DNA of 64,000 bases from Octopus vulgaris (lineage: Eukaryota), in assembly GCA_951406725.2 (NCBI GenBank), contig OX597829.1:20336001-20400000 (forward strand), written 5' to 3'. The position numbers and the translations under genes are program-made. The notes under the pieces are model-generated. The model saw only the letters and a list, made by a program, of their open reading frames with translations. It was not told where the DNA came from and did no database searches. Shown here piece after piece: positions 19,729-45,903 of this stretch; position 1 is the first letter of the stretch, and each line of letters opens with the position of its first letter.

Positions 19729-20682
19729 ATGGACAACATGCAAAAATTAGAGGTGAATGCAAACACTGGCGTCAACAAAAGCCAGCGTAACTGGACGAAA
19801 GTAGAGCTGGAAGTTTTCATCAGAGGATGGAGCTCGGCCGACAGATCGCAACCAACTAAAAACATAGCGGCGACCCTGAAAAGCCATGGCTTTATGAGGA
19901 CGTTGGCGCAGGTAGAGAGGAAGAAAAGAGAAGTCGAAAGGGCCTACACTCTCATTGCACCACACATGGCTTTGCTAAGCCAAGTCCTCAAGGTGGACAA
20001 AGACAAAGAGAGAGAGATGGAAACAGGAAACACCAACCACAGAGTGTCAAAAAATGACACGCCCACAGCCACAGTCGAAGAAGGCAAGCAGGGCAAACAA
20101 CAGATAGGCGGCGATGGGGAAACGGAAAATAACCACCCGGATGAAAATACCTATGCAGAAAGGAACCAGTGGACAACCGTCCAACGGAGGAAGAAAAAAC
20201 AGAGAGGAACTGGGGACAAGAAAACCCAGATAACATGCAAATTCTTCCAGAATGGAACCTGCTGGCATGGAGAAACAGGGGAAGGATGCAGGTTCGCTCA
20301 TCCCAGGCCCTATGGAAATTGCATCAAACCCACTCGACCAAAATGCCTTAACCAAAACCAAGACCGAAACCAAAACCAGAACAAATTCAAGCTGCCCCAG
20401 AAATATGCAGACATAGTGCGGAATGCCCCAACAAGGAGAAGGCGCACATTTGCAGAGGAAATGCAGACGCCGGCAGCAGAACAAAGAAATTTTGTGGAAA
20501 TAGCAGAGAAAATTGTGGGACAACTGGCCTGGATACATCGTCTTCAGAGCCAGGGGCACTCAGAACAGCACTCAAGACCACCACAATCAAGGGACCCAGG
20601 GTGGCCACCGCTGACACCAGCCCAGGTGCCACACCGACAGCCTTTATTGACACCCCAAATATCTCACCAATGCTTCTGCTGA
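19729..20682 (+). CDS. LINE A ORF1: Myb/SANT-like domain plus CCCH zinc finger
   Basis: RNWTKVELEVFIRGW..IAATLKSHGFMRTLAQVERKKREVERAY; CKFFQNGTCWHGETGEGCRFAH (C-x7-C-x8-C-x3-H). Confidence 0.8.
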   Translation: MDNMQKLEVNANTGVNKSQRNWTKVELEVFIRGWSSADRSQPTKNIAATLKSHGFMRTLAQVERKKREVERAYTLIAPHMALLSQVLKVDKDKEREMETGNTNHRVSKNDTPTATVEEGKQGKQQIGGDGETENNHPDENTYAERNQWTTVQRRKKKQRGTGDKKTQITCKFFQNGTCWHGETGEGCRFAHPRPYGNCIKPTRPKCLNQNQDRNQNQNKFKLPQKYADIVRNAPTRRRRTFAEEMQTPAAEQRNFVEIAEKIVGQLAWIHRLQSQGHSEQHSRPPQSRDPGWPPLTPAQVPHRQPLLTPQISHQCFC

Positions 20683-43242: not shown

Positions 43243-45903
43243 GTCATTGTAAGCTGAGACGATAAGACGTGTTTTTACTCCTCTCTGCGCCGGTCAGCAG
43301 CAAGCTTCACAGCTACATTCGTCGTAATTGACCATCACATATATTCCTGTATATTTGAAACCATGCTTTTTCCCAACTCGTGAGTAGACTTTTCCTTAAC
43401 CACAAACTATTTTCATAATTTTCAAACGACCAAATATTTTCAAACACCTTCTGATAACTAAAGGATCACCCACACATTAAAAATTAGAAAAAGAGTGAAA
43501 AAAAAGAAAAAAGAAAGATAAAATAACTACAAGCTCACAATTCAAATACAAACTTCTCAGTATTACAACAAACATTCTGTACAATCAATTCTACATACTT
43601 CTCCTTAAAAAAAAAAAAAAAAATAATAATAATAATAATTAAAAGTAATCAACAAAACGAACGAACAAAATAAAATTTAATAAAACATATCAACCAGAAT
43701 GGCTAGCCACCAAAAATCCAACAAAAACTGGTCTGATAATGAAGTCGACGTTCTTATCAACACATGGCATGGCCTTACCGAAACAGAGAGCATAGGTGCT
43801 TCGTGTCTGAACGAAATTGCTAAACGAACAGTTCACCATTTGCAAACTCGATCTGAACAGCAGATCCAAAATAAATTAAAACAAATCGAAGTTGCTTTTA
43901 AATTAATAAATAAACACTTCGATAAACTGAGATGTGTTTTCTCGCATCACCAGCAACAACAACAACAACAAACAACAAACTCAGCGGCAACAACAACAAC
44001 AACAACAGTTACAGCAACAACAACAACTTCAGCAGCAACAACCTCAGAGGCAACAACAACAACCTCAACAACAACAACAGGATGAACCACTCCTTGATTC
44101 ATCTACAATGGCTGATTTGCTAAATGAAACGATTGACCCCCCAGTCATCAGGGTCACACAGCAGGAAGCACCACCCCTTCCTTTCACTGCCCCAGCAGCT
44201 CAATCATCATCATTGTCAACACCATCTCCTCTGCTTACTACTACTAGTACTACTCCCACTATATATCAACAAACATCTTTGTCTTGGAATCGACCTCCTC
44301 AATCATTACCACCGTCAACATCTCTTCTACCTACTACTACTACTACTACTACAGCTACTACTACTAATGCTATCTCAAGGAATTTACCTCCTACAGGTCA
44401 CAAAGGTCGCCAAAACTTCAAACTATCATCTACACCTTTCACAGCTCACACACATACACGCACCTACACACCCACTCGAAACCCCATCATTTGCCGATAT
44501 TCTCTTCGCCATAGACTGTGCACTGATAGAGACTGCAAATTCACCCATTTACCTGGAACAAAACGCTCTATCCCCACAAACTACAACAGCAACCACCATA
44601 ATACAACATCACCACAACCACCAATATCTCAAACAAGGAATCCCCAAATCTGCCGCTATTCCCAGCGAGACAGATTGTGTTTGCACAGGGATTGCCCCTT
44701 TACCCATCTCCCGGGGACTCGTCGGACATTTAAAGATAACCACTCACATAAAAATAGCCGCGGCCACAGTCACCTGCGGTTCCCTAGACAGGAAACCACC
44801 TCTTCTTCCTCTTTTTAGCTATAATGAATCTAGCAAAAGAACTGGAAAAAAACATCCGAGCTATCACCCACCGCCATCCACCACTATTACCCCACTACAC
44901 ATGCCATTAAAAAGCAATCAAATAAACAAATCACCAAAACAATTAAAACCATCCACTCTCGCCTCAACATTTCTGCTTAATGCCCAAGGCATCAGCCCTT
45001 CCACCAATACACAAAAATGGAAGATAAGATTCCTGGAGGACTGGGTCGAGGCCCATCCAAACCACATCCCTTTCTTCGTCCTCACTGAAACCCATCTTAG
45101 TGACCTCCACTTGGAAGCCGAGGTGAAAGTTAAAAATTTCAAAACCATTCGTGCTGATCGTGTTGGCAGAAGAAAGGGTGGGACTGCCATTTATGTCCAT
45201 GATTCATTCTCAACAGAAGCCATGAACATATTTTCCAATGGATACTGCGAAGCAGTCGCTGTATTCAGTCAAACCAACAACTTAACAGTAGTTGGGCTCT
45301 ACAGACCACCCCAAACGCCCCTACCATGCTTCAAGGAATGCCTCAACAGCATAAAGTGTTTCATTCAGCAGTGTCAACCTGACAACATTTTAATGATGGG
45401 AGATTTCAACCTTCCCGGGGTTGACTGGTCTACAAACAGTCTGCCGCCAGGTTCTTCTCTCTCAACCCCTGACAGGGAGGCAGTGGAATCGCTTCTTGAC
45501 TTCATGGATGACTTCTTCTTGTCCCAACTGGTACTCGAACCAACGAGATGTCACAAAAACGTCTTAGACTTAATTTTCAGCAATCACACTGATACTATCC
45601 ACAATATTGCAGTGGAGAAAACCCTACTCTCCGACCATGACATGGTTCTCTGTGATCTGAGATTTCACTGGCCAAAATGCAAAACAAATGTCATCCCTCC
45701 TGTTCATCCATTTGACACTATGGATTTCCACAATGCAAACTGGGAAGCGATCAATAATGATCTTGCACAAGTCGATTGGTCCTTCACGCACACATACACA
45801 CCCACTAACATCAAAAAGTCCTGGCAGTCACTTGTAGACACCATCACGAACATATGTGCAAGACACACCCCATTAAGATCTGCAAACAAATCTAAGTGTC
45901 GAA
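43243..45903 (+). mobile_element. LINE D (C-like subgroup), 5'-complete, cut by an assembly gap
   Basis: Starts right after (TA)n. ORF1 43699-44818 has a frameshift in a CAA run and reads KNWSDNEVDVLINTW..RSEQQIQNKLKQIE with 2 CCCH. ORF2 APE domain (FLLNAQG..GDFN..SDH) runs up to the N run. Confidence 0.9.

Follow-up and report, generated by a model that had tools for sequence, protein, structure and literature searches.

Does the protein encoded by the first open reading frame (ORF1) of a long interspersed nuclear element (LINE) help to choose where the element inserts? LINE target choice is credited to the endonuclease of ORF2 or to Myb domains and zinc fingers in the reverse transcriptase (RT)-bearing protein, and the ORF1 protein (ORF1p) is viewed as an RNA chaperone. 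The question is raised by a stretch of 64,000 nucleotides (nt) of Octopus vulgaris DNA (assembly GCA_951406725.2, contig OX597829.1, positions 20,336,001 to 20,400,000 of the forward strand; hereafter the window), in which LINE copies of four families, A to D, lie among TA repeats and have ORF1s that begin with what the original prediction, made from the letters alone, took for a Myb/SANT-like domain.

The Myb/SANT domain of the ORF1 proteins

On the strength of profile, fold and selection evidence, the Myb/SANT (trihelix) domain at the ORF1 N-terminus is confirmed as real, and it is predicted to be of the DNA-binding type. The curated cut-off of the Pfam profile PF13837 is 27 bits, and it is passed by open copies of the C type (L093, 27.3 bits) and the G type (L257, 29.9 bits; L260, 29.8 bits); the window copies of A (18.2 bits, E 0.0034), B (16.5 bits) and D (26.3 bits, E 1e-5) and the open copies L033 (22.4 bits) and L101 (17.9 bits) score below it. 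A profile built from 13 ORF1 N-termini found 61 matches among 1.84 billion representative sequences; 27 of the 33 inspected have the look of ORF1 starts, and 11 of 13 others that were scanned are MSANTD-type proteins over the PF13837 cut-off, the likeness that the original prediction had pointed to. The AlphaFold model of the B domain (predicted local distance difference test score 87.4) comprises four helices at residues 7-20, 26-35, 42-60 and 63-79. Its best rows in VIA-align are RAD-Myb (Z 7.6, root-mean-square deviation 2.7, 58 residues aligned), LUX (Z 7.6) and ARR1 (Z 7.5), followed in fourth place by the trihelix protein GT-1 (Z 7.4, root-mean-square deviation 6.9, 75 aligned), and the SANT domain of DNAJC2 is also among the fold matches (Z 7.0). 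Ratios of nonsynonymous to synonymous substitution in three unsaturated between-family pairs are 0.15, 0.19 and 0.27 in the Myb domain as against 0.53, 0.32 and 0.37 in the linker, and by this measure the domain is under purifying selection between families. All families retain the basic R..Q...K surface on helix 3, the net charge of the domain ranges from +1 to +7, and, unlike Harbinger and MSANTD proteins, 17 of 17 ORF1-type Myb rows lack a loop, about 15-19 residues long, ahead of helix 4.

Other searches gave no such match. The full ORF1 alignment, in a word-indexed protein search, passed none of 8000 scored candidates, and a search of the ESM Atlas with the B ORF1 returned no usable match. 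A sequence search of the PDB found nothing significant; R2 proteins appeared there only at E 1.4 and 1.8, values too weak to speak for an R2 origin of the domain.

The two ORF1s that are open in the window are those of families A and B. The A reading frame (19729..20682, forward strand, 317 residues), delimited from the ORF list, the motif scan and Pfam, comprises the Myb/SANT domain (19786..19998, also marked by its motif), a linker, one CCCH finger of the pattern C-x7-C-x8-C-x3-H (20236..20301; zf-CCCH 15.6 bits, below the cut-off) and a C-terminal helix. Its ORF2, coding for an apurinic/apyrimidinic-type endonuclease (APE) and the RT, is broken in this copy and ends in a 3′ stem-loop tail with AGTAAAAG repeats (20670..23704, forward), after which (TA)n extends over 23703-23976. 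The B ORF1 (39481..40392, reverse strand, 303 residues), supported by the ORF list, motifs, Pfam and the fold model, has its Myb domain at residues 3-72 and its finger at 39873-39808, and is accompanied by an open ORF2 of 998 residues with APE and RT (36533..39529, reverse) and an (AATC)n tail that passes into (AT)n at 33950-36443.

The C and D copies are each split over two frames. In C the ORF1 (28071..29188, reverse) is frameshifted past the first helix, which lies in one frame with the remainder in another; its fingers are at 28520-28464 and 28346-28290, and its ORF2 frame, with APE and RT (24866..28195, reverse), has a (TATCAAAG)n tail into (AT)n at 24413-24868. The D ORF1 (43699..44818, forward) is divided into a Myb part at 43699-44085 and a finger part at 44108-44818 with two C-x8-C-x4-C-x3-H fingers (44492-44548 and 44651-44707), and the following ORF2 start, coding for APE (44764..45903, forward), is ended by an assembly gap at 45904-46003. 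Elsewhere in the genome, open ORF1s of both families, about 410 residues long, are common, L093 (409 residues, C) and L033 (411 residues, D) being examples.

Six-frame scans bear out the sequence signatures listed in the original prediction. The pattern W-x3-E-x3-[FL][IVL]-x2-W occurs exactly four times in the window (19792-19830 and 43729-43767 on the forward strand, 29155-29117 and 40380-40342 on the reverse), and R[TS]-x2-Q-x3-K also exactly four times, once in each ORF1 start, with zero chance matches elsewhere; one finger of the first kind was found in A and in B, and two of the second kind in C and in D. All four ORF1s that it counted are present, with the correction that C and D are frameshifted. 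Genome searches, in which at least 150 candidates were scored per family, place A to D among dispersed families with many copies at 98-100% identity, and by that identity the families are young. Three of ten ORF1-like proteins looked up carry the name of Octopus vulgaris, and one is near-identical to that of A. An ORF2 with APE and RT, a short-repeat 3′ tail and dispersed, 5′-truncated copies characterise these elements as APE-type LINEs; the label CR1 is our assumption from RT motifs, the trees described below being made up of unnamed relatives.

The CCCH array, family J and exchange of 5′ modules

The original prediction had also implied that CCCH fingers are foreign to CR1-group ORF1s, and this part fell: three-finger CCCH arrays without Myb occur in relatives inside and outside octopus, and only the Myb domain is unusual. 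The C-C-C-H ligand pattern is retained in all families; the zf-CCCH profile reaches 22.7 bits in L107, over its cut-off of 20.5, with the window copies below the cut-offs, and an Atlas match to zf-CCCH at 0.81 is taken as a lead only. An amphipathic C-terminal helix (S/N-F-L/V...), which the original prediction had not named, is likewise conserved and common to all families. A genome search with PF13837 returned five genes that look like host genes and, after them, the older family G (25 of 30 loci fetched), whose ORF1 consists of the Myb domain, four CCCH fingers and the C-terminal helix. Families A and B retain one finger type of the G array, and C and D duplicate the last finger.

Three CCCH fingers with the same C-terminal helix, and without Myb, were found in L284, L289 and L291, which come from contigs of other hosts that are eukaryotic but binned with bacteria; L284 is PHD-like and has its 5′ end cut. 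The N-termini of the three were tried as remote Mybs and ruled out (hhalign probability 0.04%). Searching the octopus genome with the L284 array yielded family J (L442), whose ORF1 of 469 residues contains a helical region and a finger resembling PHD (C4HC3 pattern; PF00628 14.4 bits, below the cut-off), together with three CCCH fingers and the helix, with no Myb in the reading frame. Since G has four fingers and the Myb-less relatives have three, the CCCH array is, as these sequences have it, older and wider than the Myb domain, which is the new part, and since J combines a PHD finger with three CCCH fingers in the absence of Myb, the unusual step is the Myb in place of PHD. The A/B-type fingers are closer to J than to G by BLOSUM score in 6 of 7 cases, the segments being too short to decide.

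With the G finger array, a word-indexed protein search passed one of six candidates, and a finger profile run against 44 other genomes found four places in three of them, one being new and cut before its N-terminus. The Myb profile had no match at E<=1 in 80 metagenome and 85 genome or viral loci fetched by ORF2 alignment, and a metagenome scan with the B ORF2 alone gave no relatives in 102 stretches. Separately, the three-finger CCCH ORF1 goes in L289, L291 and L391 with an RT of another, canonical CR1-like branch (L391 has it in one frame with ORF2), which on sequence grounds is a further ORF1 exchange, and L306:58-1359 is a LINE ORF1 with PHD, NADAR and CCHC domains.

The families with Myb do not form one group in their RT. 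A FastTree phylogeny of the RT core (171 rows) places A, B and F with J, L284 and many unnamed relatives, the ORF1 type being known for few of the latter, to the exclusion of C, D and G. In a more careful tree of 24 rows the split between the two Myb lineages is supported at 98/96, and a single group of the six Myb rows is rejected by the approximately unbiased test (p=0.015), the group having been defined by ORF1 type but after the FastTree result was known. By these trees the two Myb lineages, A/B-type and C/D/G-type, are not RT sisters. Family J belongs to the same RT clade as A and B, and in its 5′ untranslated region (UTR) the beginning of a C/D-type Myb ORF1 is found in decayed form and in duplicate (two copies in L442:520-1748). 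The remnant was recognised by profile in 4 of 20 loci and by motif in 5 of 20, and matches D at 46.5% in tblastx (E 1e-7); J is, judged from this remnant, a 5′ chimera between LINE lineages. Because the Myb lineages are not sisters and the start of a Myb ORF1 lies decayed in the 5′UTR of J, 5′ modules appear to move between lineages, which is a plausible route for the spread of the Myb domain. The loop deletion shared by all 17 rows favours one capture of the Myb, although the Myb-domain tree leaves the A/B and C/D/G types unjoined (3 changes, 83 columns). The ORF2 of J (L445) is 63% identical to metagenome protein P0020 as against about 44% to others, a likeness that may hint at recent horizontal arrival.

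TA repeats at the insertion sites

Flanks were scored by one rule for all families, (TA)5 at most 60 nt past the 3′ stem-loop, with distinct 3′ ends counted. In the Myb families (TA)5 or longer adjoins 77 of 100 ends (113 loci given), made up of 24/35 in A, 7/10 in B, 20/21 in C, 17/19 in D and 9/15 in G, and the TA bias is present in both of the non-sister RT lineages with Myb. In J it adjoins 9 of 44 (50 loci given), and the background in random windows within 200 kb is 6.8%. A short interspersed nuclear element (SINE) with an A-type tail is weakly TA-biased (9 of 30). For another CR1-like family, whose tail is (ATT)n, whose 3′ part lies at 6010-6601 on the reverse strand of the window and which served only as a flank control, the count was 0 of 30 within 200 nt of the ORF2 end, one row being misoriented. 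Age decay does not explain the contrast, because copies of J resemble one another as closely as those of A do, and divergence is greater in G than in the SINE.

The SINE is very abundant (window 16200-16390 and 11400-11580, both forward, and others; L392-L421), has its 3′ stem-loop and AAGTAAAAGAG tail in common with family A and contains an internal TA/TG tract; ARAGORN found no tRNA in five of its loci. It forms, from its sequence, a probable LINE-SINE partner pair with family A. A SINE makes no ORF1p.

Because the Myb families mostly adjoin TA repeats and their PHD relative J mostly does not, we tentatively favour a reading in which the Myb domain helps to steer insertion: it would bind TA-rich DNA and so bias the LINE ribonucleoprotein (RNP) to TA-repeat sites, at which cutting and copying by ORF2p would take place. 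A longer chain of events, rather doubtful when taken as a whole, would have a Harbinger-type Myb replace PHD, the module spread by 5′ recombination, the RNP dock on TA and slippage build the long (TA)n arrays of octopus. In the favoured reading the Myb would derive from an MSANTD/Harbinger-type protein, and exchange of 5′ modules would have brought it into two RT lineages that are not sisters. The Myb of ORF1p would serve as the dock on TA-rich DNA that biases the particle to TA sites, while by analogy the CCCH array would hold the element RNA and the C-terminal helix would oligomerise ORF1p; RNA binding and oligomerisation are general properties of ORF1 proteins. The APE nick by ORF2p would require only a short TA, and slippage at that site would then lengthen the array on both sides. 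There are precedents, so far as the accessible parts of the sources go, in HeT-A Gag, which directs its RNP to telomeres (PMC5537684, PMC4700185), and in the Harbinger Myb protein, which binds DNA and recruits the transposase (PMC9392472).

Several observations weigh against steering by the Myb domain. Some concern the flank counts themselves: 23 of the 100 Myb-family ends are without adjoining (TA)5, J is about 3-fold above background, the families compared are unlike in ORF2p and in the 3′ tail as well, and the copy-level Fisher p for the J contrast, 2e-10, overstates the case, since it counts copies and not origins, the comparison being of two lineages with Myb and one with PHD. The true partner LINE of the SINE may be another than family A. 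The copy L201:915-6190 (G000:C2) bears on what the counts mean. Here a C copy has split the coding sequence of an A-related LINE into two parts, which have 10 nt of the reference in common, and intact copies have a short interrupted TA run at that place; the insertion is bordered on its two sides by 578 nt of TA as against about 10 nt at the homologous site. Long TA arrays can arise with or after LINE insertion in this one copy, and the flank count therefore mixes targeting with array creation, the building of arrays being a property that would belong to ORF2p or to repair. L201 is the sole readable empty site: of 48 two-ended copies an earlier search matched one, which lay in a (TAA)n run, two further searches found no TA-bearing split, and the last gave 15 splits, one of them informative. 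On the side of the protein, Foldseek with the B model returned nothing at E<=0.001 and the VIA-align Z scores, all below 8, are middling. The residues past the conserved glutamine of helix 3 read QIERKK in A, B, F and H as against QIxxKLK in C, D and G, which is unexpected, by analogy with Myb-DNA contacts, if both Myb types read one sequence. The branch between the Myb lineages drops to 81/94 when J is added and other rows are changed. All functional steps of the mechanism are inferred, and DNA binding by the Myb is a prediction. The tethering to (TA)n put forward in the original prediction is matched by the flank counts and qualified by the differing ORF2p, the differing helix 3 and the array of L201.

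The growth of the L201 array and the divergence of helix 3 would both fit an origin of the TA pattern in ORF2p alone, with an APE that prefers TA, an RNA tail that pairs there and an RT that slips, the Myb serving most likely in ORF2p binding or nuclear import. The same local unit often recurs in the 5′ and 3′ array interruptions, as slippage would give. In the available text of PMC5537684 and PMC4700185 specificity in SART and TRAS is set by the APE endonuclease, a point that also tells against a targeting role of ORF1p, and that of PMC9392472 has the Harbinger Myb in nuclear import and protein binding as well. What this explanation needs is a TA bias that arose twice in non-sister ORF2 lineages, or was lost in J, in step with the Myb, and the SINE with the A-type tail would be expected beside TA more often than in just 9 of 30; we consider it a real possibility, if short of likely. 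At the 5′ junctions of L198, L204, L211 and L224, short repeats of the first bases of the element are interleaved with TA, a pattern that repeated priming or template jumps would give.

Two further accounts assign the Myb domain to other partners. It could bind the 5′UTR of its own element, regulating transcription or the joining of the 5′ end, with the TA bias a side effect of binding AT-rich DNA or unrelated. Trihelix proteins are transcription factors, a GACGT-containing 5′ motif is common to all families, in the J chimera the Myb and the 5′ end have moved together, and the 5′UTR of B (40393..42440, reverse, with a TA array upstream) is a long array of AT-rich tandem repeats. In this 5′UTR, of 1.4-2 kb, the repeats are nested (40509-42435, a 373-nt unit repeated 2.6 times), and its length differs between copies. 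Yet J has a Myb-family 5′UTR and no intact Myb and is nonetheless young and abundant, and the flank contrast is left unexplained, so that we think this account improbable. Equally little probability is given to a SANT-type binder of chromatin or RNA that stands in for PHD and is without DNA sequence preference: the domain occupies the place of PHD in the reading frame, SANT folds are among its matches and its net charge is low, but no family has lost the basic helix-3 surface, and by sequence the domain belongs to the DNA-binding MSANTD type. Steering by a TA-binding Myb is kept as the tentative reading, and as a correlation that can be tested.

Neighbouring copies and known systems

In and around the TA arrays of a 37-kb segment (window 19729-53510) seven or more copies of these families lie nested, and the cluster is a pile-up fed by the TA flanks of the copies themselves. 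It includes a second, 5′-truncated D copy (49909..53510, forward) with two CCCH fingers (finger fragment 49969-50183), ORF2 pieces and a tail into (TA)n. A B-related copy, also 5′-truncated (16646..17872, reverse), starts at its CCCH finger (17846-17781) and has a TA array upstream. At 31792-32362 TA runs interleave B-like coding sequence every few dozen bases, which looks like an artefact of assembly or consensus, or repeated template switching. A fragment of a C2H2 zinc-finger cluster gene with KPYHCDICGKSF repeats, a host gene, lies at 57493-58335 on the forward strand.

Families A to D and their relatives are presumably, and we take them probably to be, among the 13 recently active CR1 families of a recent octopus repeat annotation. 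That annotation of Octopus vulgaris (2026, PMC13282606) reports 787 insertions for these families, and in its accessible text ORF1, Myb, zinc finger and target have no mention; the mollusc survey PMC10294476 classifies by RT only, as far as its available part goes. Metcalfe and Casane (2014, PMC4120745) sorted CR1/L2-lineage ORF1s into types I-V and describe 448 Jockey-group ORF1s with RRM, CCHC, PHD, Tnp22, esterase and zf/lz, and the portion of their text at hand contains no mention of Myb, SANT, CCCH, C3H or MADF. The octopus elements resemble theirs in having two ORFs with APE and RT, a modular ORF1, an N-terminal PHD in relatives, and ORF1 exchange or domain shuffling between lineages, and differ in the combination of Myb, CCCH array and helix. 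The ORF1s of A-D, F, G and H gave no Pfam match to RRM+CCHC, CC-RRM-CTD, PHD(+RRM) or esterase (E<=1 or 10), lie outside types I-IV of Khazina and Weichenrieder and of Metcalfe and Casane, and would be unclassified type V. The literature searched, which did not extend to most subscription papers or to Repbase, Dfam and paper supplements, where the families or the architecture may be recorded, yielded no account of a LINE ORF1 with Myb or CCCH, and the architecture appears undescribed, as the original prediction had supposed.

In R2 the Myb domain is located in the RT-bearing protein. The same is true of TRAS, where it lies in Pol according to the accessible text of PMC5537684; like R2 and TRAS1 the octopus families are site-biased non-LTR elements with a Myb, but theirs is in ORF1p and not in the RT protein. 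With Harbinger/PIF's Myb-like protein and with MSANTD/NAIF1 (PMC9392472, as available) they share PF13837 and the trihelix, and Harbinger's protein binds DNA and brings the catalytic protein; unlike these, the octopus Myb forms part of a LINE ORF1 that also has CCCH fingers, and it lacks the loop before helix 4. HeT-A Gag, as an ORF1 protein that steers its RNP, is a precedent for the proposal, although its target is the chromosome end and not an internal microsatellite, and no Myb is described for Gag in the available parts of PMC5537684 and PMC4700185.

The finding adds an ORF1 type with Myb and a CCCH array, and a wider type with PHD and CCCH, neither of them listed in the accessible text of PMC4120745. 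Judging from the one case of L201, long TA microsatellites may be a product of LINE insertion itself. One genome holds young families with Myb (A-D, G) or with PHD (J) on the same CCCH scaffold and with a four-fold difference in TA flanks, so that the targeting role is at present a correlation, for which family J of that genome is the natural control, and a role of ORF1p in target choice is directly testable by domain swap. If the longer chain of events is true, target choice in these octopus LINEs would be made by a DNA-binding domain in ORF1p rather than in ORF2p.

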